Source: Minisyncoccota bacterium
GTDB taxonomy: Bacteria > Patescibacteriota > Minisyncoccia > Phycocordibacterales > UBA918
DNA length: 64,000 nt
Direction: 5' to 3'
NCBI GenBank assembly: GCA_022841645.1
Contig: JALHRC010000005.1
Span: 2,804-66,803, forward strand
The position numbers and the translations under genes were made by a program. Under the pieces are notes generated by a model that saw only the letters and a list, made by a program, of their open reading frames with translations, made no database searches and had not been told where the DNA came from. Each line of letters begins with the position of its first letter. The stretch's first letter is position 1. Shown here in pieces: positions 1,275 through 56,333 of this stretch.

Positions 1275-3257
1275 TTACTCAACCATGGACAGCCAGTGGG
1301 CGTAGCCAAGCGCCGACATCTCGGCCTTAGGAATAAAACGTAGTGCCGCACCATTCATGCAGTACCGTTTACCACCGCGGTCGATCGGCCCATCATCAAA
1401 GACGTGCCCAAGGTGCGAGTCGGCGAACCGTGACCGCACCTCAGTGCGCACCGAAAACAACTTCCGATCTTCGTGGTGCGTCACCACTTCATCACTTAGC
1501 GGTCGTACAAACGACGGCCACCCCGTACCCGAATCAAACTTATCGCGCGAGGAGAATAGCGGTTCGCCAGATATCATGTCAACGTACAAACCGGGTTCAT
1601 AGTGTTGGTCAAGCGCGCTGGTACCAGCACGCTCTGTAGCATCTTCGCGCATCACCCGAAAGGCCACCTCAGAAAGTAATGTTCGCAACTCTTCGTCGAC
1701 TGGTCGTATATACGTCTCCCATGAAGAAGGGGTAAATTGGTTACGAGTAGCTGAATCCATAGTGGTGTTTGTTGCCAGATTGTCCGAATAAGTAAATTTT
1801 TTAAGGTCACTTCCCCACGTTGATTCTATGAAGGCTGTTCGACCGGAAGCACTGCGATACAAACTATATCGTAGTGGATTCTTTAGAGCGTAGTCTTGGT
1901 GGTAGTCTTCGGCTGGGTAGAACGGCGGTCGCGCTACTACTAGCAGCGGAAGCGGCGCTGGAAAAATCCCACGAGCGTCAACGGCTGCGATCACCGCCAG
2001 TGCCGCTCTCTGTTCCTCCTTTGTTTGATAATAAATAGCTGGAGCATACTCACTGCCACGGTCTTTAAACGAACCATGAGCGTCAGTCGGGTCACCATGC
2101 TTAATAATATGTTCCACCAGATTCGCGTAGGATACGATTGACGGGTCATACACCACCTGCACGACTTCGCGGTGACCGCCGTCATCGTAGTTCTTGTAAT
2201 CTGGATTTTCGGTAGTACCGCCAGCATATCCAGAGACAACATCAATGACCCCCGTCACCTTCGCTAGATCGTGCTCGACGCACCAGAAACAGCCGTTGCC
2301 AAACAAGGCGTTGGCAGTTTTAGTTGGTTGTGGTGGTGCGGGTGGGGTTACTGGTTCTCGAAGTACTGCAACTATTTGACTACCACTAGTCATCATCTGG
2401 TCATCCACTTCTTTAGCATCAAGGGTTGTGCTGGTAGCCTCTGTCAAATCTGTAGTCGCTAACGTCACTCCACTCTCAGCACTCATTGGTTGAGGTAGCG
2501 GAAGCGGTGAGGGGACCGATTCGGCTGGTGCAAACTGACGCAGGAGTTCTTCTTCAAATTGGATAGTGGCTCCATAGCCACTATCAAGAACGAACGACTC
2601 AAACTGCTTGTCCCAGCCCATCACCACCGCCACTCCAACACACAGCAGGAGTACGCCAAGGCCCTGGCGCACTCGCGCAGTAGTGGTAAGCCGTTTTAAG
2701 AGTACGTTGACAAACTGCTGACCAAAGTAAGCAATCAGAAAGAGAACAAGGACCAATCCCAACACAAATCCTCCCAAATACCACAACCCCAGCGCAAGTG
2801 ATGCTGGTAATACGGTCGCAATAATAAAGAGATAGGTTGGACTACAGGTCGAGAACACCGGACCAAGTGCCACCCCCATCAGCACATCCCCGCGCCAGCT
2901 GTTAGCCTGGTAGCCGCCACCGACTGCCCGATTGCTTAGCCGTGCTATCCGGCCCACAAGCGGCACTCTACCCCACCACGTCGGTACCAGAAGCGACAAA
3001 CCAAGGAGCGCAAGCACGCCTCCGGAAAACCACGTCCAAACGCTTGGCGGAATGGTAATCAGTAGCGTCGTCGCTCTAAGAAGGAGCGTAAAGACAATCA
3101 CCGATGCAGCGAGCACGAGAATCACTACCACTGACCGCCGTGAGAGATGGCGCGCTCCTGGCTCACTTGCACCGATCACGACCGGCAACAGCGGCAAAAT
3201 ACAGGGGGCCAGGACCGTGAGTGCCCCAGCCAAAACGGAGATAAGAAAGAAGGACAT
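1275..3257 (-). CDS. msrAB: Tri-domain fusion: CcdA/DsbD-type thiol-disulfide transporter TM domain - MsrA - MsrB (membrane-bound peptide methionine sulfoxide reductase A/B)
   Basis: The N-terminal six-TM region carries the CcdA motifs LAPCILPLLP and FSTCSPTY. A Pro-rich linker follows. The MsrA motif GCFWCVEH and the MsrB motifs GTGWPSF, HLGHVFDDGP and RYCMNGAALRF complete the 660-aa product. Confidence 0.85.
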   Translation of the reverse strand: MSFFLISVLAGALTVLAPCILPLLPVVIGASEPGARHLSRRSVVVILVLAASVIVFTLLLRATTLLITIPPSVWTWFSGGVLALLGLSLLVPTWWGRVPLVGRIARLSNRAVGGGYQANSWRGDVLMGVALGPVFSTCSPTYLFIIATVLPASLALGLWYLGGFVLGLVLVLFLIAYFGQQFVNVLLKRLTTTARVRQGLGVLLLCVGVAVVMGWDKQFESFVLDSGYGATIQFEEELLRQFAPAESVPSPLPLPQPMSAESGVTLATTDLTEATSTTLDAKEVDDQMMTSGSQIVAVLREPVTPPAPPQPTKTANALFGNGCFWCVEHDLAKVTGVIDVVSGYAGGTTENPDYKNYDDGGHREVVQVVYDPSIVSYANLVEHIIKHGDPTDAHGSFKDRGSEYAPAIYYQTKEEQRAALAVIAAVDARGIFPAPLPLLVVARPPFYPAEDYHQDYALKNPLRYSLYRSASGRTAFIESTWGSDLKKFTYSDNLATNTTMDSATRNQFTPSSWETYIRPVDEELRTLLSEVAFRVMREDATERAGTSALDQHYEPGLYVDMISGEPLFSSRDKFDSGTGWPSFVRPLSDEVVTHHEDRKLFSVRTEVRSRFADSHLGHVFDDGPIDRGGKRYCMNGAALRFIPKAEMSALGYAHWLSMVE

Positions 3258-3264
3258 GAAATGA

Positions 3265-3906
3265 TCACTCTACCTGCGCTACGACACTCGCTAGCGTCGA
3301 GCCACCACTCCACTTTTTGATGAGTGTGCCGTCGGCGGACACCTGTACCAGGGTATGTTGGGTAGTCACTCCATACTTTTGTTTCAGTGCCGTGCTGGTA
3401 TCGTAGTCGACATTAAAAATAGTCAGCCCCGCTGGAATACTGGTCAATTGATTTTTAATGTCACCCTCCAGCGTACGACAGCTTGGACACCAGCTAGCGT
3501 AGAAAAACAATACCGCGTCGCCCGCCGTGGCTGCCGCTGCTACCGCAGCAGCAGAGTATGTGGTATAGCTACCTGTAGCAGCAGACGCTGGCATGTCCTT
3601 TTTCATGGTGTCGTCACCCATCATAGCTACACTTTTCGGTGTATCACTCATGTCATCTGCCATGGTGTTTGCAGAATTAGTAGATGACATCTCGGGTTTA
3701 GGAGGTGATATCGTCGTCGCGCCACTGTTCATTGCCGTTTCTTCATCCATCATCTCATCTGGTTTACCCTCCATCTCTGCTGCTCCAGTATCCGACACTT
3801 TCAACATCTCTGATGTAGCAACCGACGGTGCATTATTCGACTGACTTGCATACCACACGCCACCAAACAAGGCTACAACTACCACTCCAATTAAAAGATT
3901 AACCAT
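3265..3906 (-). CDS. Membrane-anchored thioredoxin-like protein (WCPSC active site) with a Met-rich linker
   Basis: It has an N-terminal TM helix and about 14 Met within an 80-aa acidic linker. The C-terminal thioredoxin fold carries FFYASWCPSCR. It lies immediately upstream of the CcdA-MsrAB fusion on the same strand. Confidence 0.8.
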   Translation of the reverse strand: MVNLLIGVVVVALFGGVWYASQSNNAPSVATSEMLKVSDTGAAEMEGKPDEMMDEETAMNSGATTISPPKPEMSSTNSANTMADDMSDTPKSVAMMGDDTMKKDMPASAATGSYTTYSAAAVAAAATAGDAVLFFYASWCPSCRTLEGDIKNQLTSIPAGLTIFNVDYDTSTALKQKYGVTTQHTLVQVSADGTLIKKWSGGSTLASVVAQVE

Positions 3907-4010
3907 AGTGCAAAAGTAGAGAAAGGTTTAAGGTCTTTACTAAACTGCTACAGTCAGTATAGCCGACTTTACATACATGTAAAGTCGGCTATACACAGTA
4001 TCCTCTACAT

Positions 4011-4379
4011 CTATTCAAGGTAGAGTCTTGAAATATGCTTGACGAGCACCATAGCAGCGAGGGCCACCGGAATCCACGGATCAATGGTGTGTGTGAGGGT
4101 CTGGAAAATAAGGGCACAGAGTAACACTGCCAATCCAGCCAGGTACGCCAGGCGTCCCGACTGCACCCGCAACTGCACTTCACGCTCATCGGCGGCTGTT
4201 TCAGAAAGAACGAAACTCGCCCAAACAACGAGCAGCACGGTCACACACACAAGAGCCACCAGCTCTCCCATCATTGGCATCCAAAACGGCACCAGATCGG
4301 CAATAACGATCAAGAAAAAACTAATTAAAATCGCAACGGTGGTGTGCATGATAGTTTTGTGCATGAAAATCTTATTCAT
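4011..4379 (-). CDS. Small polytopic membrane protein (DUF2178-like) co-transcribed with an XRE regulator
   Basis: The 122-aa product has 3-4 hydrophobic helices. Its start overlaps the stop of the XRE gene (ATGAATAA overlap). Confidence 0.55.
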   Translation of the reverse strand: MNKIFMHKTIMHTTVAILISFFLIVIADLVPFWMPMMGELVALVCVTVLLVVWASFVLSETAADEREVQLRVQSGRLAYLAGLAVLLCALIFQTLTHTIDPWIPVALAAMVLVKHISRLYLE

Positions 4380-4620
4380 ACGTCAGGGTAAATAAATCTT
4401 CTACTGCCACCTCAAAATAACGCGCGAGAGTAAGCGCAAGTAGCACCGAGGGCGTGTAATTACCCTTTTCGATAGAAATGATGGTTTGCCGCGTTACGCC
4501 CACAGCAATCGCCAACTCTTCCTGCGTTAGGCAGCGCTCGGTACGAAACTGATTAACACAATTAGTAACTTTATAATGCACACTCATCGACAGCAGCATA
4601 GCAAACTGCATCACAATCAC
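4372..4620 (-). CDS. XRE-family helix-turn-helix transcriptional regulator (an alternative start at 4587 gives 71 aa)
   Basis: It carries the Cro/C1-type HTH signature LTQEELAIAVGVTRQTIISIEKG. Confidence 0.75.
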   Translation of the reverse strand: MIVMQFAMLLSMSVHYKVTNCVNQFRTERCLTQEELAIAVGVTRQTIISIEKGNYTPSVLLALTLARYFEVAVEDLFTLTYE

Positions 4621-4713
4621 AATGGCTGTGAAGTGATGGTCGGCAGTCGGGAGTGGCTCATAGGGTCCATGCTAAAAACCCTGCCGCTTCTATCGTGCAC
4701 AATGACCACTCAC

Positions 4714-5928: not shown

Positions 5929-6087
5929 CATTTCCGGTCATCACTCTACCATAGCCGCTTTTCCCCACCCCTAGTTGACGAGAACGGGGATGGCGGAGTA
6001 TTGTTGATTTGCCAAGGGGTTCTAGAGCAATCTTAACCCCAAGGCGTATCGCCGCACTCACGCGGCAACAGCAGGAAGGACACGACG

Positions 6088-6273
6088 ATGAAGACCCGTT
6101 TCCACCCGCGCCTCGGCGCATCCATGGCGGTCGAACCCGGTGCGAAGAAGCTCGGCACGCACACCCGCCCGATGGCCGTCGGCGCCGCTGCGACGCTGCA
6201 TGGCCAGGCCGCCGAGATCGCGCTGTTCGCCACCGCCCCGTCCCACGCCGCCGGCGGCTTCCTCGGCACCTGA
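6088..6273 (+). CDS. Hypothetical 61-aa Ala/Gly-rich protein in the GC-rich pocket
   Basis: An SD (AGGAAGGA) lies 7 nt upstream of the ATG. The ORF is followed by a perfect 11-bp hairpin (ccctctcgcag-caaaca-ctgcgagaggg, about 6295-6322). Coding status is uncertain because of GC bias. Confidence 0.25.
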   Translation: MKTRFHPRLGASMAVEPGAKKLGTHTRPMAVGAAATLHGQAAEIALFATAPSHAAGGFLGT

Positions 6274-7079: not shown

Positions 7080-7379
7080 ACGCCACATACATTCAACCGC
7101 CGGCACTCCAAAATATAGCGAGCGCCCTACCGGTCAACCACCTCTCTCCTACTATCATGCATGATAGTAGGAGAGACGATTAGAGAGTGCTGTATTAGTC
7201 GCGTAGTTTTGACAATATTTTATATTGGCATACTATGCAGCTGCCATTTAACGAAATGGTCCCTGAAACCTTTTTTAGGGCGCTAGCGAGCAGAGAGGGA
7301 GTTAAGTTGCCCCCCAACCCGGCTCTTAATCTCATTCGCGTCAAACTCTTCGGCCACCCCTCGGGGTGACCGAACTTTT

Positions 7380-8468
7380 TTATGACTCCTCGTCGAGGCG
7401 CGCCGGCTTATCGAGGGTGAGTACATCCACACCGGCCGACTCGCCCGTGATGCGCAGCACGTCCTTGTCTACCTTCGCTAGTTCTTTATACCCAGCGTTG
7501 TAGTGATTGACGCTCGTCGCAAGCGCGTTGCCGAGCTTTTGGTAGTAGTCTTCATACTTGCCAATATGCGTTCCTAGTTTTTCCACGTTCTTGATGATAT
7601 CGATAGCCTTCTCTTCGATCTCAAGCGCTTTAAGGCCCTGGAGCACGGTCTGCAGGTAGGCGAGGAATGACGTGGGCGAAACAATAATCACCCGATACTT
7701 CCCGGCTGCCCGTTGGATGAGGTTCTCTTCCCCGCCAGTAATGGTATTGGAGAGGAGGTCGTAGTAGACACCTTCCGAAGGAATAAACATGAAGGCAAAG
7801 TCCATCGTCTTTTCACTCGGTCGGATGTACTTGGCGGTTTCGGTAATGCGCAACTTAAGGTCATTGATGAAGGTTTTTTCTAAAGTAGCGCGTTCTGTCG
7901 CGTCGCGCGCTTCAATGAGGCGATTGTAGTTTTCGAGCGAAAACTTTGAGTCAATCGGAATCACTTTGTCTTTCACAAACACCACAGCGTCGACAATTTC
8001 GGCATTGCCAAAGGCGTACTGCATTTGAAAGCTGCCGGGTGGCAGCACATTTTGCAGTACCGTTTCGAGGTAGTACTCGCCCAAAATTCCCCGTTGCTTC
8101 GGATTTTTAAGCACGTCTTGCAGTTGCTTGAGCTGCTCCGCAAAACCAATCACTTGGCGGTTGGTTTCTCCGAGGCGCGTCAACCCTTCCGTTACCTCGC
8201 GCACAATTTTCGACGACTCCGAGAGTTGGCTCTCGACCGTGCGCTGGATGGTACGACTCGATTCGCCGAGGCGCGCGTCGAGCGTGCGGGTGGAATCAGC
8301 GAGCCGTTCGTTCATCGTACGCGCGAGTTCTTGCATACCTTGCTGGAGGAGCAGGATACTTTGATCGGCCTCGGCTGGCTTTTCAGTGCGTTTTCGAAGA
8401 AGTAGGTACACCAAAAAGCCGTTTCCGAGGAGGAGCGCGACCACCAACACAATAATCAGCCATTCCAT
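7380..8468 (-). CDS. rmuC: DNA recombination protein RmuC (the ORF extends to 8516; the start is chosen at MEWLII)
   Basis: An N-terminal TM helix is followed by a long coiled-coil and the RmuC core (IPIDSKF, MFIPSEGVYYD, VSPTSFLAYLQ). Confidence 0.8.
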   Translation of the reverse strand: MEWLIIVLVVALLLGNGFLVYLLLRKRTEKPAEADQSILLLQQGMQELARTMNERLADSTRTLDARLGESSRTIQRTVESQLSESSKIVREVTEGLTRLGETNRQVIGFAEQLKQLQDVLKNPKQRGILGEYYLETVLQNVLPPGSFQMQYAFGNAEIVDAVVFVKDKVIPIDSKFSLENYNRLIEARDATERATLEKTFINDLKLRITETAKYIRPSEKTMDFAFMFIPSEGVYYDLLSNTITGGEENLIQRAAGKYRVIIVSPTSFLAYLQTVLQGLKALEIEEKAIDIIKNVEKLGTHIGKYEDYYQKLGNALATSVNHYNAGYKELAKVDKDVLRITGESAGVDVLTLDKPARLDEES

Positions 8469-9681: not shown

Positions 9682-10152
9682 ATGCTAAACTACTCCCATA
9701 TGACCCTCCACGAAACACTCAAAGATACGCTCAAAGAGGCACTGAAGGCTCGCGACGAAGTACGCCTACGCACCGTGCGCAGCGTCCTTACGGCGATCAC
9801 GAACGAACTAGTCGCTACGGGCAAAACCCCTCAAGACATCATCGACGACAACGGCTTTCTTTCCGTGGTAAAGCGCCAGGCCAAGCAGCGCCGTGAGTCG
9901 ATCGCACAATTTGATGCTGCGGGCCGCACTGATCTCTCAGAGCCCGAGAAGGCCGAGCTCGCCATCCTTGAAGCCTACCTCCCTACCCTCATGAGCCAGG
10001 AAGCCATCCGTCCGATTGCTGAAGCCAAAAAGGCCGAACTCGGTGTTACAGACAAGAGCAAGCTTGGGCAGCTCGTGGGCGCCGTTATGAAAGAACTCCA
10101 GGGCAAAGCAGATGGCGGCGACGTGAAGGTGGTGGTGGAAAGTTTATTTTAG
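9682..10152 (+). CDS. yqeY: GatB/YqeY domain protein
   Basis: It carries YqeY signatures (LKEALKARD, LTAITNE, ILEAYLP, GQLVGAVMKEL). The start could instead be at 9700. Confidence 0.8.
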   Translation: MLNYSHMTLHETLKDTLKEALKARDEVRLRTVRSVLTAITNELVATGKTPQDIIDDNGFLSVVKRQAKQRRESIAQFDAAGRTDLSEPEKAELAILEAYLPTLMSQEAIRPIAEAKKAELGVTDKSKLGQLVGAVMKELQGKADGGDVKVVVESLF

Positions 10153-21005: not shown

Positions 21006-21188
21006 TTAAGCCTTCTCCTTCCAATCTCTAATGGTAAAGGTCTGTCCACGCTTTTCTACCACCACTTTTTGATCTTTCTTCCATCCCAACTCGCGCACCT
21101 GCTCGATGGGGAGCGTTACATACATGCTCCCGCCGCCTGTTTTCGACAGCTTGCGAATATGTCGCTCTTCTTGTTTACGATTTGCCAT
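21006..21188 (-). CDS. AbrB/MazE/SpoVT-family DNA-binding protein (antitoxin-like, 60 aa)
   Basis: It carries a swapped-hairpin beta-barrel signature (MYVTLPIEQVRELGWKKDQKVVV). Palindromic operator P1 lies 16 nt upstream of its ATG. Confidence 0.6.
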   Translation of the reverse strand: MANRKQEERHIRKLSKTGGGSMYVTLPIEQVRELGWKKDQKVVVEKRGQTFTIRDWKEKA

Positions 21189-21203
21189 ACCCTATTCTAT
21201 CAC

Positions 21204-21243
21204 CCGCGTACACCAATAAATACGTATTTATTGGTGTACGCGG
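21204..21243. promoter_or_regulatory. Operator/promoter module P1: a perfect 40-bp palindrome (ccgcgtacaccaataaatacg|tatttattggtgtacgcgg) followed by a TAGAAT -10-like box and the start codon
   Basis: It sits 16 nt upstream of the AbrB-like ATG. A near-identical module, P2, lies upstream of the 22543..23175 gene. Confidence 0.6.
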
Positions 21244-21248
21244 TACTG

Positions 21249-22553
21249 TCACGGTCTTCGCGCTTTGAAAACAAGGCCACTAGGAACCTTTCTTCCTCCA
21301 TCAGGTACCCACAGGTGAGGATGTTGTGGCAGTGTCGGCCAGCGCACGTAGTGATAGTTACCGTATGACTTTATCTTTCGAGACCCATCATCGGCGCTGA
21401 TTTCCCTGGTAACAATTTTTGCTGACTGACCTCCATCGAGAAAATAGGCCCACGATACACCCAACTCTGCCATGTGCGTTGCCACCTCATGGGGTGAAAT
21501 ACCTGCACACAGTGCGGACCGTGGTAGACCATCAAACAGTCTGGTGTGCAACGTTCCTCGTCCATCCATATAAATAACATTACGAGCAATTCGATTTGTT
21601 CCAAAAGGCACATTATCGCCAAGTGAAGAATCGTGATTTATGGGATGGTCACTGGTATGCAAGAAGTGAGCAACATTGGGTCCAATACAAAATCCTGAAG
21701 TAACGCCACTAATGTCGATTCCCTGGATACTGGAAAGGGTGATCGCATCCCCGGGCGTTACGGTGCTCGGGGCCAGTACTTGTAATACACCCAACTCTTG
21801 ATAAACAGAGCTGCCTCCCCCCGGTCGGGTAGCCTTCACATATAAATCCCCTTCACTATTCTGCGCAATCACCATATCAATGACACCATTCTTAACCGGC
21901 GTAGTAACAGGCTTCATGACCCGCATCGACCCAGCCTTGTCAGATTTTTCATGCTTCACAACACCGGAAGCAGACGTATAAAGTACGGCCTCCCCATTTG
22001 TGGCTTCTGACTGAGAACCTCGCCAGGTATACCTGCTGCCGCCAATTACTACCTCACCCGCAGCAGTCACTTCCGCTACTGCAACCCCTCCTTCTACGCT
22101 ATATAAAAATGGCCTATCAGCAACTGGCAGCGAACTGATCATTCCGTTGCGTATCTCTAGTTGCAAATTATGATTACCATGTTGCTCGACCGCCATTTGA
22201 TCAGCTAACAAAAAGAAGCCGCCATTGGTCACTGCCACAACCGAGGGGTCGTTCTGGATAATTCGCTTTAGGAGCAGTGGGGTGTCGGTAGAAAACAATT
22301 CAACAGTCACCCTTTCGCTCGATGTGCGAGCGAGATCATAAAAGTTCACATACGAACCATCAGTTCCTAGCGAAAGCGAACCCATCTCAAGTTGCAGACC
22401 AGGAGCAAGATCAACGATCTCGCTCGATTGCTTTCGCTCCAAAGCACTTCTGGTATGCAAAAGTGTCTCCAGGGGAGGAACATCTATACCATTCTCTTCC
22501 GCAAAGCGCCGGCGCCGTTCCTCATTGAACCGTTTATACATCTCATGCGCCAT
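21249..22553 (-). CDS. Phosphodiester glycosidase family protein (DUF2233/NAGPA-like)
   Basis: It has the VTNGGFF motif and beta-rich repeats. The start is chosen at MAHEMYKRF, overlapping the upstream stop by 11 nt. The 73-codon N-terminal extension of the raw ORF was rejected. Confidence 0.6.
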   Translation of the reverse strand: MAHEMYKRFNEERRRRFAEENGIDVPPLETLLHTRSALERKQSSEIVDLAPGLQLEMGSLSLGTDGSYVNFYDLARTSSERVTVELFSTDTPLLLKRIIQNDPSVVAVTNGGFFLLADQMAVEQHGNHNLQLEIRNGMISSLPVADRPFLYSVEGGVAVAEVTAAGEVVIGGSRYTWRGSQSEATNGEAVLYTSASGVVKHEKSDKAGSMRVMKPVTTPVKNGVIDMVIAQNSEGDLYVKATRPGGGSSVYQELGVLQVLAPSTVTPGDAITLSSIQGIDISGVTSGFCIGPNVAHFLHTSDHPINHDSSLGDNVPFGTNRIARNVIYMDGRGTLHTRLFDGLPRSALCAGISPHEVATHMAELGVSWAYFLDGGQSAKIVTREISADDGSRKIKSYGNYHYVRWPTLPQHPHLWVPDGGRKVPSGLVFKARRP

Positions 22554-23175
22554 GATGTCCTTTTGTGAGTGCACTAATAACTGCGTCCTGCTGTAGTAAG
22601 TAGCGGACTGGATACGTGATATTTTTTGGGAGTGCTGACAGAGAATACCAAGCGAACCGACTCCCTTCTTCATCGAGCATAACCGATGGATCAGTAATAG
22701 TAGCGTGATAGAGATGCCAGGTGTGAATATCTGCTCCGCCCATGCACTCGTCACCCTCAATTGTTCCCTCAAAAATTAACCGCGCATCGTCTAATAGAAT
22801 ACCTACTTCTTCAAAAGCTTCTCGCAGTGCTGCTTGTTTTGGCTTCTCAGATGGTGTCATGTGTCCACCAGGGATGGTCCACAGAAAAGGATATTTGGTG
22901 CGCAAAAAGAAGAGCAACTCGCCTCGGCCATTTTCAATAATAATTCCAGCCCCTTCGTGTACCAAATTGTCACACGTATCAAAATACTGAATCATGTGAG
23001 GATCCCAGATATTTACTCGATCAGCTATGTGGTGGCAGGCCTTGCAATAAAATTGTACCCGTGGACCATCTACAGTATCCACCGTCAACTTCTCAACTGA
23101 CGCGGCGCCGCACTGGAAACAATACTTGGTGTGAACATTAGGAAGTGTGGCAGGAAAATTAGCTCGTTTAGCCAT
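22543..23175 (-). CDS. NUDIX hydrolase with an N-terminal zinc ribbon (NudC-like)
   Basis: It has a Cx2C..Cx2C zinc ribbon (CFQCG..CKAC) and the Nudix box GGHMTPSEKPKQAALREAFEEVGI. The start is chosen at ATG 23173-23175 (MAKRANF). Confidence 0.7.
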   Translation of the reverse strand: MAKRANFPATLPNVHTKYCFQCGAASVEKLTVDTVDGPRVQFYCKACHHIADRVNIWDPHMIQYFDTCDNLVHEGAGIIIENGRGELLFFLRTKYPFLWTIPGGHMTPSEKPKQAALREAFEEVGILLDDARLIFEGTIEGDECMGGADIHTWHLYHATITDPSVMLDEEGSRFAWYSLSALPKNITYPVRYLLQQDAVISALTKGHHGA

Positions 23176-23192
23176 ATCCCATTCTACCACCG

Positions 23193-23228
23193 ACGTACAC
23201 CAATAAATACGTATTTATTGGTGTACGT
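23193..23228. promoter_or_regulatory. Operator/promoter module P2: a perfect 36-bp palindrome (acgtacaccaataaatacg|tatttattggtgtacgt), a TAGAAT box and the start codon
   Basis: It sits 17 nt upstream of the NudC-like ATG. Sequence identity with P1 extends through the -10-like box into the first codons (MA[N/K]R). Confidence 0.6.
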
Positions 23229-23241
23229 GGATGGACGGTGC

Positions 23242-23492
23242 TCACCGGCTCTTTCGGCCAATAATTTGCAGCCAGTTAGTCGCATTTGATCCTTTGTTAC
23301 CTTCCCAGATAATTTCGAGCTCAAGTTTTAGAAAATGGGACCGGAGCTCCTCCAGCGTAAAGTAACTAAAGAAACGCTCGTACTCATATCCGTAATCATT
23401 CTCGACCCTTACCTCTTCGGCCACCAGGTGTCGGCATTGTGGTCCCGCACCCAATCCTCGGCGATGCGGTCGTAGGTAGCTTTCAAATCCAT
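23242..23492 (-). pseudogene. Remnant of a class I SAM-dependent methyltransferase (frameshifted and internally deleted)
   Basis: An N-terminal fragment (MDLKATYDRIAEDWVRDHNADTWW) in one frame is followed by a C-terminal-like fragment (EVRVENDYGYEYERFFSYFTLEELRSHF) in another. Together they total under 100 aa. Confidence 0.4.
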
Positions 23493-23545
23493 GAGTCCAG
23501 TATAGCAATGCGGTGAAGTCGAACCAAACCGCCAGCTTGGCACAC

Positions 23546-23575
23546 AAAAAGCATCCTGCAGGATGCTTTTTGTTA
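23546..23575. terminator. Perfect hairpin terminator (acaaaaagcatcctgcaggatgctttttgt)
   Basis: A 13-bp stem is flanked by A and T runs, making it bidirectional. Confidence 0.55.
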
Positions 23576-23809
23576 GTTCATGAGTTGTCAGCCTTGAGTG
23601 TTCTACTCGCTCTTCGATTTCTCTACTTTTTAACTTCGGCGGCTGGAGCGGGATGAGTACTTGGTGCTGGGGTAGCTGGAGTCGTTGCGACTTTTTTCTC
23701 GTCAGACATAACAATGTATGTTAGCTACTAAGCCGCGGCTAGACCATTATACTCCCGAAAATCATAATCACCTAACCTCTATTTTTCTGCAACTACTCAA
23801 ACGGCCGAC

Positions 23810-31724: not shown

Positions 31725-31888
31725 GAAGTGTAATAAGTTCTAGTGTTCAATACTCTCTTTCAATATACCGGTCTAAAAGTAGAGGTACCGCCGCCCACAC
31801 TAACGTCGTAGAACGTCGAATCATTCCCCTCCTTTACTTTCAAACTTCTCATGCCCTTTGAGTATATACCCTCTAAACGTCATAACTT

Positions 31889-31926
31889 CATGTACTGCAT
31901 TAAATACGTATTTAATGCAGTACATG
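31889..31926. promoter_or_regulatory. Palindrome P3 (catgtactgcattaaatacg|tatttaatgcagtacatg), same core TAAATACGTATTTA and GTAC ends as P1/P2
   Basis: It is a perfect 38-bp palindrome in the intergenic region about 165 nt upstream of the kinase-like gene. Confidence 0.45.
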
Positions 31927-31977
31927 AGAATATAGCTAGAACGTTACCAAAGCCTGATCTGGTTCACGGCAATAAAA

Positions 31978-32505
31978 CTATTCTTCAACTGCCTCAAGCA
32001 GCGTAAAGGCAGCGCCTTTTGCTTCGATATCGGCCATGGTTAACCCGCCCTTACTCGCACCATAGCGCTCCATGAGCACCTTCTTCAATGACTCAGGGTC
32101 AGTGATAGTTCCAATCGAGTGCTCAAAGTATTTGGGCGAAAGTGTATCGATGGGCAGATTATGTTCCGCGAGAGTGCACTTCATGACCCGCGCCCCTACG
32201 AGAGAGAGGAGCGGTGGCCTCTCCTCGCTGTGGGCAGTTTTGTACGTGCCGTGACGAATGATCGTAACCAAAAGATAGTTGCTGCCAGCACGGTGAATGG
32301 TGGCGCCCAAATTAAAGTGACCAATCACCGGCTGGCCATCCGCTACCGCGGCAAACTCGGCCTTGGGTATGCGAATAAGACACGCCACGCCATAGCGCTT
32401 GAGCACCTCCTCGTACGGCACCAGCACCTCCTTCTCTCCCTCGAGCAAAAATACCATTCTCGGTGGCGTAGGCGGCACGGTAGCGGTAGCGAGGGTTTCA
32501 GACAT
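31978..32505 (-). CDS. Hypothetical protein (175 aa)
   Basis: It is a clean ORF with no recognisable motif. Confidence 0.45.
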   Translation of the reverse strand: MSETLATATVPPTPPRMVFLLEGEKEVLVPYEEVLKRYGVACLIRIPKAEFAAVADGQPVIGHFNLGATIHRAGSNYLLVTIIRHGTYKTAHSEERPPLLSLVGARVMKCTLAEHNLPIDTLSPKYFEHSIGTITDPESLKKVLMERYGASKGGLTMADIEAKGAAFTLLEAVEE

Positions 32506-32570: not shown

Positions 32571-32786
32571 TCAATTCAACACCACAATCATCGCATTAAG
32601 GTAGGTGGCAAATGCTACCCACAGCAGGTACGGGACAAGCAGCGCAGCAGCAAGCGTGCTCCAGCGAGCAAAGACCACGAGCGTAGTAACGAAAGTAGCA
32701 AAAGTGCCGCAATAACTACGAGCGCTAGCTCTATTGAGCACATGGTAGTAGTGGTTCCCTACATTAACCCGAGCAGCTCGCGGCAT
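32571..32786 (-). pseudogene. Chimeric remnant: 24 codons of a RAYT/IS200-like transposase N-terminus fused to the C-terminal end of a TspO/MBR-like protein
   Basis: The N-terminus (MPRAARVNVGNHYYHVLNRASAR) matches the HUH Y1 transposase N-terminal pattern. The C-terminus (LVPYLLWVAFATYLNAMIVVLN) resembles a TspO C-terminus. Confidence 0.4.
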
Positions 32787-32828
32787 TGATTAACTGTATC
32801 ATAAAGGCTCCTGACCCTTTTTGCGAAG
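32719..32828 (-). mobile_element. Repeat copy A: about 110-bp fragment carrying the promoter and 5' end of a RAYT/IS200-like transposase gene
   Basis: It is about 80% identical to copy B at 34427..34546 in the same orientation. Confidence 0.45.
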
Positions 32829-34368: not shown

Positions 34369-34494
34369 CTATGAGAAACAAGTTTCAAAGAGCCCGTACG
34401 CTTCCTTCGTATCAAATAAAATCAAACGAGCGCTGGCTCGGTTGAGCACATGGAAATAGTGGTTTTTTACATCCACCCGAGCAGCCCGTGGCAT
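34369..34494 (-). pseudogene. Remnant of a RAYT/IS200-like transposase 5' end (41 codons, MPRAARVDVKNHYFHVLNRASAR...)
   Basis: It is the N-terminal Y1-transposase pattern only and lies within repeat copy B (34427..34546). Confidence 0.4.
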
Positions 34495-34546
34495 TGATAG
34501 ATTGTATCACAAAAGGCTCCTGACCCCTTTTTGCCCCTTTTTGCAA
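34427..34546 (-). mobile_element. Repeat copy B of the RAYT/IS200-like 5' fragment
   Basis: It aligns with copy A and has an internal tandem duplication (cccctttttg x2). Confidence 0.45.
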
Positions 34547-34566: not shown

Positions 34567-34782
34567 CTAAATGAAATCTTGAGGAGTGAGTTGCGACTGC
34601 CGCAAAATGGAACGAAATGTGCCGTGCGGTATCTCTTTCTTATTGGCCGGAACAATCACTGTGAGAGTTTCCTCCTCGCCGATTTTGCGGTATTTCACAT
34701 GACTGCCCCTTTGGGACACAAAGTTAAAATTGTTTCTCTCTAGAATGGAAATTATACGGTCAGAGGAATGTAATCTCGGCAT
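34567..34782 (-). CDS. hicA: HicA family mRNA interferase toxin
   Basis: It has the YcfA/HicA signature (IISILERNNF..RGSHVKY). It lies 3 nt downstream of hicB. Confidence 0.75.
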   Translation of the reverse strand: MPRLHSSDRIISILERNNFNFVSQRGSHVKYRKIGEEETLTVIVPANKKEIPHGTFRSILRQSQLTPQDFI

Positions 34783-34785
34783 GCA

Positions 34786-34989
34786 TTACACCGAGACTAT
34801 TTCAGGTTCTTCTACTATAAAAACGACATCATCGGATGCGTCTTCAAAATAAAGTTCAAGAGCTTCTCGGAGATTTTTGAGTGCTTCTTCCTTTGAAGAT
34901 CCGAAGCTTGAAATATCCACATTTAAAGACTGAGCAACGTATTGATTGCCTTCTTTCCAAACTACATTTTTAAAATCTGCAATATCCAT
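34786..34989 (-). CDS. hicB: HicB family antitoxin (UPF0150)
   Basis: It is a small acidic protein upstream of and adjacent to hicA with HicB N-terminal-domain-like sequence. Confidence 0.65.
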   Translation of the reverse strand: MDIADFKNVVWKEGNQYVAQSLNVDISSFGSSKEEALKNLREALELYFEDASDDVVFIVEEPEIVSV

Positions 34990-42193: not shown

Positions 42194-42300
42194 TAGCTTA
42201 CCACGCTAGAAGAAGGCTTTTAAGCGAGGGTTGGCGGCAATTCTTGCCCAGACTACATTCAGTACGATTGGTTTGTAGTTCGAGTTGCAGGCAGGACCAT

Positions 42301-42338
42301 GGCTAGTACCGTTATCATATATGATAACGGTACTAGCC
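42301..42338. terminator. Perfect 38-nt palindrome (ggctagtaccgttatcatat|atgataacggtactagcc) overlapping the serS stop codon
   Basis: A 19-bp loop-less stem may act as a terminator or a protein-binding site. Confidence 0.4.
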
Positions 42339-43592
42339 AATATGAGCTTTTCCTAAATACTTCTGGAGTGCCTCCGGCACCTTGATAGTGCCATCAGCCT
42401 GCTGGAAATTCTCCACGAGTGAGACAAGGATGCGCGGCGTGGGAATGGCGGTGCAGTTAAGCGAGTGGGCGTAACGCATCTTCCCTTCCTTATCGCGATA
42501 GCGAATGTTGAAACGGCGGGTCTGAAAATCGTGGAAGTACGAGGCAGAGCTGATCTCGCGATATTTCTGCTCGTCTGGCACCCACAGTTCGATGTCATAT
42601 TTCTTCACTTGCCCCTGACCGATGTCACCACCACAATTTAAGACCGTGCGGTACGGGATACCGAGTGATTCGATAAACTCTTCGGTATTACGATTGATCG
42701 TCTCGTGCCACTGCACACTCTCCTCGTGCGAGGCTTCGCAGAGCACGACTTGCTCTACCTTGAAAAATTCATGGACACGGATAAGCCCTTTGACGTCTTT
42801 GCCGTGGCTCCCCGCCTCACGCCGGTAGCAGGGTGAGAAGGCCAGGAATTTAATCGGAAACTGCGCGTGGTCGAGTACCTCGTCGGCAAAGTAGCCCATG
42901 GTAGAGACTTCGCTCGTGCCAATCAGGTAGTCGTCGTCTTGCGTGCGGTAGACGTCGTCGGCATCATTGGGGAGATGTCCCGTGCCATAGAGATTGCTCT
43001 TGCGCACAATCGACGGCACCAGGAGTGGATCAAAACCTTTCGTCTGAAAAAACTCATTGGCGTAATTCCAAATAGCCCAGGAGAGACGCGCTCCGTCACC
43101 AAGGAGGTAGTAGCCGCGGAAGCCGTGTACTTTCGTACCGCGTTCAAAGTCCACCATCTTATGTCGGACCATCAGTTCGGTGTGATCGAGGGGCGTGAAG
43201 GAAAATTGTGTCTGCTCACCCCAATTTTTCACCTCCACGTTATCGGCGTCGCTGTCGCCATCAGGGACCGACATGTCGGGGATGTTCGGCACCTGGAGCA
43301 TGAGCGCCTGCCACTCCTCCATAATTGGTTTGACCTTTTCTTCCTCGGCTTGGATGTCGGCTTTGAGGGTTTGCATCTGTGTGATCAACTCCTCACGCCG
43401 CGCGCTGTCGGCCTGCGCGATTTCTTCAGAGACTTTATTTTGCTCGGCCTTCTTGCCCTCAACGGCACTTAAAAGCGCGCGGCGCTCATCATCGATAGAA
43501 AGCAGCCGATCAATATCGACCTTGATCTTTTTCTTCCGTGCCGCCTCCTTCACAAGATCAGCATTCTCCCTGATGAATTTAATATCGAGCAT
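42333..43592 (-). CDS. serS: Seryl-tRNA synthetase
   Basis: It has an N-terminal coiled-coil tRNA-binding arm and class II motifs 1-3 (e.g. GTSEVS, FRRE..GS..GL..HEF, GG). Confidence 0.9.
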   Translation of the reverse strand: MLDIKFIRENADLVKEAARKKKIKVDIDRLLSIDDERRALLSAVEGKKAEQNKVSEEIAQADSARREELITQMQTLKADIQAEEEKVKPIMEEWQALMLQVPNIPDMSVPDGDSDADNVEVKNWGEQTQFSFTPLDHTELMVRHKMVDFERGTKVHGFRGYYLLGDGARLSWAIWNYANEFFQTKGFDPLLVPSIVRKSNLYGTGHLPNDADDVYRTQDDDYLIGTSEVSTMGYFADEVLDHAQFPIKFLAFSPCYRREAGSHGKDVKGLIRVHEFFKVEQVVLCEASHEESVQWHETINRNTEEFIESLGIPYRTVLNCGGDIGQGQVKKYDIELWVPDEQKYREISSASYFHDFQTRRFNIRYRDKEGKMRYAHSLNCTAIPTPRILVSLVENFQQADGTIKVPEALQKYLGKAHIG

Positions 43593-51960: not shown

Positions 51961-52875
51961 ATGCCGAAACCAACACTCATCGCTATCGTCGGCCCTACCG
52001 CCTCGGGCAAAAGTGCACTTGCAGTCGAGCTAGCCCTTGAGCTGGGTGGCGAGGTGATTTCTGTGGATTCACGGCAGGTGTATCGTGGCATGGACATTGG
52101 CACTGGCAAGATTACCCAGGCAGAGATGCGCGGCATTCCCCACCACCTGTTTGATCTTGTCGATCCGGTAAATGACACGTACACCGCCACCGACTTTGAG
52201 CGCGACGCCAACGCTGCTATCAGTGATATTCTTGCGCGCGGTAAACAGCCGATTCTCTGTGGTGGCACTTTCTTTTACCTCGACGTTTTGCGTGGACGCA
52301 TGTCACCAGCTCCTGTCCCTCCGAACCCGCAACTTCGTGCACAGTTAGAGGCACTTTCCCTTTCTGAACTAGAAGTGCGACTGACACAACTCGACCCCGA
52401 ACGGGCGGCCACCATCGACAGCGAAAACCCCCGTCGCCTGATTCGGTCTATCGAAATCGCTACCGCCCTTGGTCATGTGCCAAAGGCTACGCCGGTGGAA
52501 TCACCATACGACTGGCACAGTATCGGCATTGATGTACCGCCAGCGACTTTGCGCCAGCGGATTAGTGAACGACTCGACGAACGATTAGCAGCGGGCATGG
52601 TTGATGAGGTGGTGAAGCTCCACGACGATGGAGTGTCGTGGGATCGGCTCGTATCGTTTGGCCTCGAGTACCGCTACATTGCCGAACATCTACAAGGCAA
52701 GCTTTCATACGGCAACATGCGCACCCAGCTTTTTTTCGCAATTTGTGGGTACGCCAAACGCCAGCGCACGTGGCTCCGCCGCGACCCGAACATACGGTGG
52801 TATCCGTTTCCGGTTGACGTACAAACGGTACTCAAGGAACTTTCTAACTACAATTCCCCAGAACCCTTCGGTTAA
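51961..52875 (+). CDS. miaA: tRNA dimethylallyltransferase
   Basis: It has the P-loop IAIVGPTASGKS and MiaA motifs (DSRQVYRGMDIGTGK). Two perfect palindromes follow (52860-52885, 52896-52917). Confidence 0.9.
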   Translation: MPKPTLIAIVGPTASGKSALAVELALELGGEVISVDSRQVYRGMDIGTGKITQAEMRGIPHHLFDLVDPVNDTYTATDFERDANAAISDILARGKQPILCGGTFFYLDVLRGRMSPAPVPPNPQLRAQLEALSLSELEVRLTQLDPERAATIDSENPRRLIRSIEIATALGHVPKATPVESPYDWHSIGIDVPPATLRQRISERLDERLAAGMVDEVVKLHDDGVSWDRLVSFGLEYRYIAEHLQGKLSYGNMRTQLFFAICGYAKRQRTWLRRDPNIRWYPFPVDVQTVLKELSNYNSPEPFG

Positions 52876-52946
52876 CCGAAGGGTTCGCACTCTTAGTTCA
52901 GCCCGTTAGTACGATCGATCGTACTAAGTGCGCCTGCCTCTTTTTT

Positions 52947-53017
52947 AAAATTCTGTTCTCGAAAACCGATCAATGTGGTAAGATGGCCCGCATCACGGGC
53001 CTATAGTTTAGTGGTAA
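52947..53017 (+). repeat. 71-nt duplicate of the tRNA-Trp promoter region plus the first 21 nt of tRNA-Trp (identical to 53184..53254)
   Basis: There is exact 71/71 identity. The copy stops in the D-loop and is followed by unrelated sequence. Confidence 0.7.
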
Positions 53018-53030
53018 GAAGCTAGTCGCT

Positions 53031-53180
53031 TCTTCCTTTCTGCGCTCACTCGGAAATCCAAACCTCATCGGCTTGGACTTCGCTCGTTTCGCTTGAAGAA
53101 AGCCTCCGGCAGGTCTTCCTTTCTGCGCTCACTCGGAAATCCAAACCTCATCGGCTTGGACTTCGCTCGTTTCGCTTGAA
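53031..53180 (+). repeat. Tandem direct repeat: two identical 67-nt units (53031-53097 and 53114-53180) separated by 16 nt
   Basis: The unit is tcttcctttctgcgctcactcggaaatccaaacctcatcggcttggacttcgctcgtttcgcttgaa, seen twice. Confidence 0.7.
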
Positions 53181-53233
53181 AGTAAAATTCTGTTCTCGAA
53201 AACCGATCAATGTGGTAAGATGGCCCGCATCAC

Positions 53234-53304
53234 GGGCCTATAGTTTAGTGGTAAAATTCTGGTCTCCAAAACCAGCGTCCTCCGTTCGAGTCGGAGTGGG
53301 CCCG
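53234..53304 (+). tRNA. tRNA-Trp (anticodon CCA)
   Basis: It has acceptor GGGCCUA/UGGGCCC with discriminator G, anticodon loop CUCCAAA and TpsiC TTCGAGT. A TGn-TAAGAT promoter-like sequence lies upstream. Confidence 0.85.
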
Positions 53305-56061: not shown

Positions 56062-56098
56062 CGTCGGTGGTGGAGTGGTCAATCACAACAGACTGTAA
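56062..56098 (+). repeat. 37-nt exact duplicate of the 5' half of tRNA-Tyr (through the anticodon), followed by a hairpin-rich 150-nt insert
   Basis: It is identical to 56252..56288. Serial perfect hairpins follow downstream (atgtgtcttc/gaagacacat, gtcgc/gcgac, aaatct/agattt). Confidence 0.65.
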
Positions 56099-56250
56099 GA
56101 CTGACGCTTCGCGCACCAGGCAGTCTTTCTGGCAGATGTGTCTTCCACCGAAGACACATTAAAAAGTCGCTATAGCGACACACCAGTAAATCTTACAGAT
56201 TTCCAGTCTAGATAGATTACGAAAAACATTTGAGTTACAATTGCATATCT

Positions 56251-56333
56251 GCGTCGGTGGTGGAGTGGTCAATCACAACAGACTGTAAATCTGTCGGCTT
56301 CGGCCTACGAAGGTTCGAATCCTTCCCGGCGCA
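56251..56333 (+). tRNA. tRNA-Tyr (anticodon GUA)
   Basis: It has acceptor GCGUCGG/CCGGCGC with discriminator A, anticodon loop CUGUAAA, a long variable arm and TpsiC TTCGAAT. Two terminator hairpins follow. Confidence 0.85.

Follow-up and report, generated by a model that had tools for sequence, protein, structure and literature searches.

The question raised by this locus is whether the perfect palindromes that stand in front of two neighbouring transcription units of a Minisyncoccota bacterium (contig JALHRC010000005.1) are operators and, if so, of which regulator. The stretch under study (hereafter the window, 64 kb in length) is ordinary chromosome that carries serS, topA, relA/spoT, dprA, parB and four tRNA genes, and the closest named homologs of its proteins come from metagenome-assembled genomes of Parcubacteria/Patescibacteria, i.e. 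the candidate phyla radiation (CPR). In the order of transcription on the minus strand, the locus comprises a putative remnant of an open reading frame (ORF) at 23242-23714, palindrome P2, a gene for a zinc-ribbon NUDIX protein, a gene for a NAGPA-type phosphodiester glycosidase, palindrome P1 and a gene for a small AbrB/MazE-like protein, which is followed 3' on the same strand by genes for a GNAT protein, a second NUDIX protein and a metallo-beta-lactamase (MBL)-fold hydrolase. A third palindrome, P3, is found at 31888-31927. With a probability of about 0.7, we read P1, P2 and P3 from sequence as operators of a stand-alone AbrB/MazE-fold protein of 60 residues, the product of 21006-21188 on the minus strand (MANRKQEERHIRKLSKTGGGSMYVTLPIEQVRELGWKKDQKVVVEKRGQTFTIRDWKEKA), a candidate autoregulator termed here mini-AbrB. 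Most CPR/Patescibacteria have not been cultured, and for this reason the control of their transcription has hardly been explored. The pair proposed here is concrete and testable: a 60-aa protein and the site GTAC-N5-TAAATACGTATTTA-N5-GTAC, set in a defined promoter geometry in which the palindrome is centred at -35.5 of leaderless promoters with an extended -10 box. In the literature we found neither the core motif nor any account of leaderless promoters with operators in Patescibacteria.

P1 (21204-21243, no strand) is a perfect loopless palindrome of 40 bp, in which the arm CCGC-GTACACCAATAAATAC directly joins the arm GTATTTATTGGTGTAC-GCGG. Its 32-bp family core occupies 21208-21239; the whole element begins 5 nt past the NAGPA stop codon and extends from -55 to -16 relative to the ATG of the abrB-like gene, with its centre at -35.5. 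P2 (23193-23228, no strand) is a perfect palindrome of 36 bp, extending to 48 bp at 92%, with the same 32-bp core (23195-23226) and the same distance of -35.5 between its centre and the ATG of the NUDIX gene; it sits 13 nt beyond the end of the ORF remnant. P3 (no strand) is again perfect and 40 bp long, TCAT-GTACTGCATTAAATAC meeting GTATTTAATGCAGTAC-ATGA, and keeps the GTAC-N5-TAAATACGTATTTA-N5-GTAC pattern; it lies 50 nt after the stop codon of the ORF at 31978-32505. Within each arm of P1-P3, the triplets TAC and GTA recur 12 bp apart. The likeness of P1 and P2 is not restricted to the palindrome but makes up a repeat unit of 66 nt (palindrome, extended -10 and first codons) at 21178-21243 on the minus strand, with a partner at 23165-23230 and 88% identity. 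On the coding (minus) strand the palindrome is followed by G-N2-GGTG-N-TAGAAT-N-GG-N-T and ATGGC-N-AA-N-CG, so that the likeness runs through the -10 elements TGATAGAAT and TGGTAGAAT into the codons ATGGCAAATCG and ATGGCTAAACG, covering ~30 nt on the side of the gene and ~4 nt on the opposite side. An earlier note on this DNA, made without database searches, had described perfect palindromes of 36-40 bp, a duplicated module of roughly 65 bp with TAGAAT and a start codon, and a related third palindrome at 31889-31926; all three descriptions hold, except that P3 is one base wider on each side.

These elements are rare. The 32-mer shared by P1 and P2, GTACACCAATAAATACGTATTTATTGGTGTAC, occurs exactly twice in the window (0 expected), the 14-bp core TAAATACGTATTTA is limited to the three sites even if two mismatches are allowed (0.10 expected), and a search of the window with a degenerate family pattern and up to three mismatches recovered nothing beyond them and no isolated half-sites. 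Loopless perfect palindromes as a class are abundant here in comparison with chance, with eight of at least 20 bp in the window vs 0.045 expected; there are two in L021, the nearest available relative, and three short ones (20-34 bp) in the remaining ~190 kb of non-redundant CPR DNA that we fetched (in L010, L016 and L022; the numbers L003-L042 denote fetched contigs of relatives or of family members).

The palindromes P1 and P2 are found at promoters of the same kind. The abrB-like gene has an extended -10 element, TGATAGAAT (21194-21202, minus strand; TGnTAGAAT), with no -35 box and only 5 nt (AGGGT) to its ATG at 21188, and the position of this element implies an mRNA that would be leaderless or would begin with a 1-nt leader. 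The NUDIX-NAGPA operon has the counterpart TGGTAGAAT (23181-23189, minus strand), 5 nt (GGGAT) before the ATG at 23175. Both start codons are backed by alignments of homologs (MAKRANFP vs M[ST]KRSDFP for the NUDIX protein, MANRK vs the family consensus MxRRK for the AbrB-like protein), and the signature of a leaderless extended -10 promoter is thus present in the sequence of both genes. A box of the form TAnnnT is found 5-8 nt before the first ATG in 22 of the 51 window genes, compared to 6.3% of all ATGs in the window (p ~1e-13), while a Shine-Dalgarno motif precedes none of the 51; to judge from these signatures, this genome as a rule transcribes its genes without a leader, from promoters of the extended -10 type. 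It follows that P1 and P2 owe a part of their likeness, namely TGnTAGAAT and the distance from there to the ATG, to generic promoter sequence. The proposal that the palindrome covers the -35 region of nearly leaderless promoters agrees well with the central position of -35.5 that P1 and P2 share and with the dominance of the leaderless signature in the window. One perfect AAGGAGG is present and precedes a 25-codon ORF (31824-31747) located just downstream of P3.

Comparison with other mini-AbrB genes provides the evidence that carries the assignment of the regulator. In L021 the mini-AbrB is 73-76% identical to that of the window, the HI0933-like protein ~80%, and the DNA of conserved genes 66-72%. 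The L021 gene is preceded by GTACTGCATTAAATACGTATTTAATGCAGTAC, which is the P3 variant of the site, identical to the P3 core in 32 of 32 positions; it ends 18 nt before the ATG of the ortholog and is centred at -34.5, while the -10 box (TACAAT) and the flanks differ from those of P1. The contigs L039-L042 come from other samples and encode a mini-AbrB (P0152) with ~52% identity; in these, GGGTACGTATTTAAATACGTATTTTAAAC-ATG is found upstream of the start. Six sites from four organisms could be aligned, and GTAC-N5-TAAATACGTATTT is invariant in all of them. More divergent members have a dyad of a different sequence: in L036 (~55% identical protein) there is a perfect loopless 36-bp palindrome, unrelated in sequence, at -53 to -18, i.e. 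centred at -35.5, with TATACT and then 7 nt between it and the ATG, and in L037/L038 there are an inverted and a direct repeat at -59 to -38. In total, all five mini-AbrB lineages, but only two of the 49 remaining genes of the window, have a dyad between -62 and -3 whose arms are 9 nt or longer (Fisher p 6.6e-6), the dyads of these two being GC-rich terminator hairpins; as the window and L021 contain orthologs, the fully independent lineages number four. In the N-terminal arm of the protein, the three members with TACGTA sites have xEERx at residues 6-10, and the two with other dyads have HNR/ENR there. The earlier note had suggested that the three palindromes are a family of sites for one dimeric regulator and that the AbrB-like protein is the obvious candidate for an autoregulator, and both suggestions appear well founded, given the recurrence of the GTAC-N5 core at the mini-AbrB starts of L021 and L039-L042, the P3-type palindrome at the L021 ortholog and the dyads at the starts of further members.

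Searches for the site on a larger scale are consistent with this distribution. The pattern GTAC-N5-TAAATACGTATTTA-N5-GTAC has no match in 185,579 species-representative genomes, among which the source species is not included, and none in viral contigs. The Joint Genome Institute (JGI) metagenomes yielded a single match, L016, with a perfect 34-bp palindrome built of TACGTATTTAAA at a 12-bp period; because 22 of 22 nt are common with the L039 operator, we accept it as a probable member of the family. The contigs around the closest HI0933-like homologs (L022-L031; 71-81% identical) contain no family palindrome, and no mini-AbrB gene was found in any of the loci L003-L031 except L021; the sampled contigs of relatives that lack the mini-AbrB gene likewise lack the palindrome. 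Look-ups of the exact mini-AbrB and of the NUDIX protein returned only short contigs that break inside the palindrome.

The same observations bear on the idea that the palindromes act only as RNA hairpins that terminate or stabilise upstream transcripts, with their closeness to promoters being a by-product of a compact genome. P1, P2 and P3 do lie 5, 13 and 50 nt past the ends of upstream genes or ORFs, the predicted hairpins are strong (-30 to -32 kcal/mol, z from -5 to -7.6), the differences between variants and the extensions into the flanks preserve pairing, and in other CPR loci an ordinary terminator occupies the same place upstream of the NUDIX gene. The palindromes are nonetheless unlike intrinsic terminators, an identity that we considered and rejected: the centre of the stem is AT-rich, no copy is followed by a T-run on either strand, and a scan with the terminator consensus makes no call, whereas the evident terminators of the window (23544, 28652 and 63190) have A/T tracts. 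In L021, a canonical GC hairpin with a T-run is located immediately upstream of the palindrome, which therefore cannot be put down simply to termination of the gene before it. Moreover, an RNA hairpin does not need symmetry without a loop through the very centre, and neither the recurrence of the core at the L039 mini-AbrB start nor the position of the L036 dyad is explained by it. We regard a role in RNA alone as highly improbable, although the P1 RNA hairpin (-30 kcal/mol) may in addition end or stabilise the upstream transcript, because P1 starts only 5 nt after the NAGPA stop codon.

The putative regulator itself proved to be a member of a sizeable family. Taken alone, the window mini-AbrB remains below the threshold of the Pfam family PF04014 (20.2 bits vs a cutoff of 24.7, E 5.9e-4), which however matches 34 of 40 aligned family members at E<=0.01, with 1.7e-10 as the best value. 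An exhaustive profile search delineated 312 clusters at 50% identity, with proteins mostly 57-63 aa long, and among solved structures the profile of the family matches the N-terminal domain of AbrB (AbrB-N, 1z0r) with E 0.008; an invariant Arg of the family, R12, is the equivalent of AbrB R8. A search of the PDB with the sequences of only the two orthologs returned nothing useful. The AlphaFold2 (AF2) model, with a predicted local distance difference test (pLDDT) score of 82.5, is that of a monomer and exhibits a beta-beta-alpha-beta-beta order (strands 14-16, 22-24, 42-47 and 50-55, helix 28-34); an earlier model from two sequences was poor (pLDDT 62). Foldseek places MazE, VapB, AbrB-N and SpoVT structures at ranks 1-7 and at most of the top 35, with TMq of 0.57-0.70 and a probability of up to 1.00, the E-values being weak owing to the small size of the protein. 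The best match is 1ub4_C (MazE, TM 0.70), and operator-bound VapB is also among the neighbours. On these grounds, mini-AbrB would amount to an AbrB-type DNA-binding domain alone, with an N-terminal arm that is basic. A public source annotates the window gene as a 39-aa product starting from Met22 (P0025), while the 60-aa form is found family-wide; the truncation is probably due to the absence of a Shine-Dalgarno motif before the real start. Gene callers that expect this motif truncate such genes, and in genomes of this type errors in the calling of short leaderless genes are likely.

Resemblance to MazE and VapB brings up the possibility of an antitoxin of the MazE, VapB or PemI type, which we rejected. 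The members end a few residues past the last strand and lack a C-terminal toxin-binding extension, and in none of the five contexts is there a toxin gene beside mini-AbrB, which argues against a toxin-antitoxin system. No conserved partner is present either: the downstream gene encodes a GNAT protein in the window (107 nt away), a fatty-acid hydroxylase in L021, a nitroreductase-like protein in L036, RecO in L037 and a C5 methyltransferase in L039.

An autoregulated AbrB-fold repressor with a palindromic operator is an ordinary, known kind of switch, the less usual aspect being an under-studied phylum. Autoregulation of MazE, VapB and AbrB via palindromic or pseudo-palindromic operators in their own promoters is described in PMC4333400, PMC5389673 and PMC9477884. 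MazE in mazEF modules (E. coli MazE; M. tuberculosis MazE6 with an 18-bp operator) has in common with mini-AbrB the swapped-hairpin fold and, according to PMC4333400 and PMC9477884, a palindromic operator in its own promoter; mini-AbrB differs in having neither a toxin partner nor a toxin-binding tail, and in an operator that is 32-40 bp long and perfect. VapB proteins (VapBC1 of C. crescentus, 5l6l; VapBC2 of R. felis, 3zvk) are likewise AbrB-fold dimers on pseudo-palindromic operators of their own promoters according to PMC5389673 and PMC3326315, but they act in hetero-octamers with the VapC toxin as a co-repressor, and no VapC-like gene accompanies mini-AbrB. In size, the archaeal Sso7c4, C68 of pSSVx and C56 of pSSVi (~55-68 aa) are closest, the whole protein being one swapped-hairpin dimerising DNA-binding domain according to PMC3159460. 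Foldseek also matches structures of the archaeal type (3o27, 7xi6 and 5itm). Sso7c4 is discussed as a protein of the chromatin type, unlike what we propose for mini-AbrB, and we know of no cognate palindromic operator at a leaderless promoter of its own gene. AbrB of B. subtilis, whose N-terminal domain (1z0r/1yfb/2k1n) gives the best profile match among solved structures and whose R8 corresponds to an invariant Arg in mini-AbrB, is a transcription regulator that binds DNA and controls its own gene as well. Its C-terminal domain serves multimerisation, and its many binding sites are loosely defined, whereas the whole mini-AbrB corresponds to the DNA-binding domain and its proposed sites are sharply defined perfect palindromes.

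The genomic layout recalls the controller (C) proteins known from restriction-modification systems, which are small, regulate themselves and have palindromic boxes (C-boxes) just upstream of their own, often leaderless gene. These are helix-turn-helix proteins of the XRE type, not AbrB-fold proteins. The likeness extends to L039, in which mini-AbrB is located directly upstream of a C5 DNA methyltransferase gene; in contrast, no restriction-modification genes adjoin the copies in the window, L021, L036 or L037. In L039 (2249-3635) the mini-AbrB gene stands between a MazE-Fic pair and the C5 cytosine DNA methyltransferase (Pfam E 6.5e-38), and the operator there contains GTAC, ACGT and TACGTA, which are typical target sequences of type II restriction-modification systems.

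The palindromes could also be operators of a different regulator encoded elsewhere, for which the mini-AbrB gene would be a target and not the source of the binder. The tie between protein and DNA is one of association, only a part of each genome is covered, and further loopless perfect palindromes at promoters (7143, 42300 and L021:1702-1729) make other palindrome-binding factors probable. On the other hand, the core motif travels with mini-AbrB across differing neighbours (GNAT, fatty-acid hydroxylase, MazE-Fic and C5 methyltransferase), and those members that diverge in sequence have divergent dyads at the same place, as would be expected for self-recognition. A separate binder therefore seems decidedly unlikely. 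The earlier note had named the XRE regulator of the window as a second protein to be assayed on the core; this link is not borne out, as 17 kb separate the XRE gene (4372-4620) from the locus and the palindrome that goes with it is a different one. What the data show directly is the sequences, their geometry, the fold, the leaderless signature and the conservation of the site at orthologous and paralogous mini-AbrB promoters; that mini-AbrB is the binder, that it represses, with how many subunits it binds and where transcription starts are inferred.

The second target, the operon under P2, begins with a 210-aa hydrolase (22543-23175, minus strand) that consists of a four-cysteine zinc ribbon, with C19, C22, C44 and C47 invariant in homologs, and a NUDIX domain (Pfam NUDIX 1.5e-15). 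Our findings do not support the designation of this protein as NudC-like in the earlier note: the NudC equivalog NF001299 gives no match, the best NCBIfam entry is a generic Nudix hydrolase with 33.8 bits vs a cutoff of 200, and the resemblance to NudC is confined to the zinc ribbon preceding the NUDIX domain. The next gene, for the 434-aa NAGPA-type phosphodiester glycosidase (21249-22553, minus strand), starts within the NUDIX gene with an overlap of 11 nt. The two genes are adjacent in every CPR locus examined, in either order. In ~13 other CPR loci or genomes, however, no palindrome is present at the promoter of the NUDIX ortholog, and with 0 of ~13 such promoters carrying it we rejected a conserved NUDIX regulon. 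The expectation that the palindrome be present at orthologous promoters in relatives is thus borne out for the AbrB promoter of the closest relative, L021, and fails at all of the ~13 NUDIX promoters. Since the P2 promoter is closer to the P1 promoter than is the orthologous promoter of L021, and since the NUDIX orthologs lack the site, the site of the NUDIX-NAGPA operon appears to be a recent copy, made within this genome, of the regulator's module, i.e. a lineage-specific acquisition. The locus would therefore show a regulon that apparently gained an operon through the duplication of a 66-nt promoter-operator module.

Upstream of P2, between it and a bidirectional terminator (23544-23573), two overlapping ORFs of 101 codons occupy 23242-23714 on the minus strand. 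They may represent a decayed gene; they have no family match and no homolog in the fetched loci. For the idea that they are the remnant of a methyltransferase, neither Pfam nor tblastx gave a match.

The bracketing of the NUDIX-NAGPA pair by P2 and P1 could instead indicate a selfish or recombination element, either akin to repetitive extragenic palindromic (REP) sequences and miniature inverted-repeat transposable elements (MITE) or composed of attachment (att)-like repeats around a mobile NUDIX-NAGPA cassette, with any regulation being secondary. P2 and P1 bracket exactly this pair, direct repeats of other sequence flank it in L017, L004 and L009, identical 32-mers occupy non-orthologous places in two genomes, gene debris is found at 31.9-34.5 kb (a C-terminal fragment of TspO and two copies of the start of a 23-codon ORF), and assemblies break at the repeat. 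Against this stand the low number of copies (three in 64 kb, one in a further 11 kb) with neither degenerate copies nor solo half-sites, the lack of a transposase, an integrase or a REP-associated tyrosine transposase (RAYT) among the Pfam and NCBIfam matches of the window, a fully symmetric core that offers a recombinase no polarity, and the one-sided extension of the P1/P2 likeness, which reaches into the promoter and the start codons. The L009 repeat is a tandem duplication with a second NAGPA start, and the fixed placement at -35.5 or -34.5 in front of mini-AbrB genes of unrelated contigs would be left unexplained. We consider an element of this kind distinctly improbable as the primary explanation. 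The more specific candidates were rejected. REP sequences and bacterial interspersed mosaic elements (BIME) share with P1-P3, as do intrinsic terminators, an intergenic position after stop codons and a stable hairpin, but the copies here are few and perfect, lack a T-run or a RAYT and keep a fixed spacing to the downstream start; all three copies in the 64 kb are perfect, none is degenerate, and the window has no Y1_Tnp match. The earlier note had held that random scattering of the palindrome would fit a REP-like repeat better, and no scattering of this sort was seen in the 64 kb. An att, dif or attC site is at odds with a core that is symmetric including the central TACGTA, and no integrase or Xer gene is present in the window.

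The repeats around the pair in other loci are diverse. In L004 the pair is bracketed exactly by 53-nt repeats (3477-3529 and 6056-6108) that include the 3' end of tmRNA together with a hairpin whose arms measure 26 nt, an arrangement characteristic of an integrated islet. In L017 the exact brackets are 7909-7941 and 10069-10101, each with a 33-nt hairpin and a T-run; here as in L004, the loop of the hairpin in one copy is inverted with respect to that in the other. In L009, repeats of 75 nt (2548-2622 and 4613-4687) derive from a tandem duplication that includes the second NAGPA start. Repeats in L010 were considered as an integron-like cassette, but the alignment resembles the repeated promoter or leader of paralogous small genes and not attC.

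For the preferred reading, in which mini-AbrB recognises P1-P3, the following mechanism may be proposed. Mini-AbrB would bind the dyad as a dimer, and probably at least two dimers would be accommodated across the 32 bp; more than one is suggested because TACGTA recurs at a 12-bp period in L016 and L039 and because TAC/GTA triplets lie 12 bp apart in each arm of P1-P3. The invariant blocks GTAC ... TAAATAC/GTATTTA ... GTAC would serve recognition. At P1 the site would cover -51 to -20 of the regulator's own promoter, which has no -35 box, so that the bound protein would block RNA polymerase and bring about negative autoregulation. The copied 66-nt module in front of NUDIX-NAGPA would have extended this control to the operon, a change confined to this lineage, and P3 would be a variant operator site. 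At P3 the nearest candidate start consists of a TATACT box, 8 nt and the ATG at 31852, which would put the centre at about -55.5; its target may be the p191/HI0933-like operon, or P3 may be a relic. With 312 clusters, the family would make up a sizeable group of uncharacterised stand-alone AbrB-fold proteins, members of which appear to carry their own dyad operators.

Several points weigh against this assignment. The window is the only part of the source genome that could be searched; no module of -10 box and ATG abuts P3, the P3-type sites of the window and of L021 do not occupy orthologous positions, and the 3.8-kb contig with the L016 site has no visible mini-AbrB gene. Known AbrB-fold operators, e.g. 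that of MazE6 with 18 bp, fall short of these perfect palindromes of 32-40 bp in both length and exactness. Palindromy further reaches into the non-conserved flanks (CCGC/GCGG at P1, TCAT/ATGA at P3), and the three differences between variants in the N5 blocks are all mirrored on the other arm, features that a hairpin or cruciform constraint, or symmetrising at the level of DNA, fits at least as well as base-specific contacts do. They suggest that a structural constraint of this kind, or a DNA-level symmetrising process, acts on top of recognition by the protein. A bolder extension would be that the loopless palindrome, the extended -10 box and the leaderless start form a portable cassette that spread by copy-and-paste from P1 to P2 and captured NUDIX-NAGPA, with a mechanism at the level of DNA preserving the perfect symmetry or cruciform extrusion requiring it, the mini-AbrB family reading DNA structure or supercoiling in addition to sequence, and the element also ending the upstream transcript. 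Taken as a whole, this scenario is speculative and rather unlikely.

The window and its relatives contain further palindromes of unrelated sequence. One of 40 bp at 42300-42339 overlaps the serS stop codon and has GTAC in each arm, one of 34 bp at 7143-7176 lies ~40 nt upstream of a near-consensus TTGACA/TACTAT promoter with no obvious ORF, and two are found between miaA and the tRNA cluster (52861-52886 and 52906-52927). Perfect palindromes centred on a TATATA box resembling a -10 element are found at gene starts in L021 (1702-1729) and L010 (1634-1657). In L021, the arms TTGTTACTCAGTAT and ATACTGAGTAACAA meet without a loop and end at the A of the HI0933-like ATG, and the ortholog in the window keeps TATATACT with no palindrome. 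The XRE (HTH_3) gene (4372-4620, minus strand) is followed by a gene for a 122-aa protein (4011-4379, minus strand) and then by a 38-bp palindrome at 3957-3994, GTATAGCCGACTTTACAT-AC-ATGTAAAGTCGGCTATAC, which probably is the operator of the XRE protein; downstream of it is a thioredoxin-like/MsrAB/VTT operon (3265-3906, 1275-3257 and 592-1269, all on the minus strand). L022 has the same gene order, and its counterpart at 752-771, ATGTAAAGT-AT-ACTTTACAT, contains the same 9-nt half-sites everted.

About 0.8 kb from P3 begins a region that looks like gene debris. It contains an 88-nt repeat (32718-32805 and 34426-34513, 82% identical) with two copies of the start of a 23-codon ORF, MPRAARV(N/D)V(G/K)NHY(Y/F)HVLNRASAR, the first of which (32571-32786, minus strand) is fused to a C-terminal fragment of TspO (NCBIfam E 2e-6). 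These ORF starts (32786 and 34494) resemble the N-termini of IS200/RAYT-like proteins, but the likeness has no support from Pfam, and the candidate was rejected. At 34567-34989 on the minus strand, a HicA toxin gene (71 aa) follows a gene for a 67-aa DUF7387 protein, and the two probably form a toxin-antitoxin pair of the HicAB type. Finally, there are repeats at tRNA genes: an 82-nt repeat (95%) at 52946-53264 comprises the upstream region and the 5' part of tRNA-Trp, with a perfect 67-nt tandem repeat (53031-53180) between its copies, and a 45-nt repeat (93%) at 56062-56296 comprises the 5' part of tRNA-Tyr.

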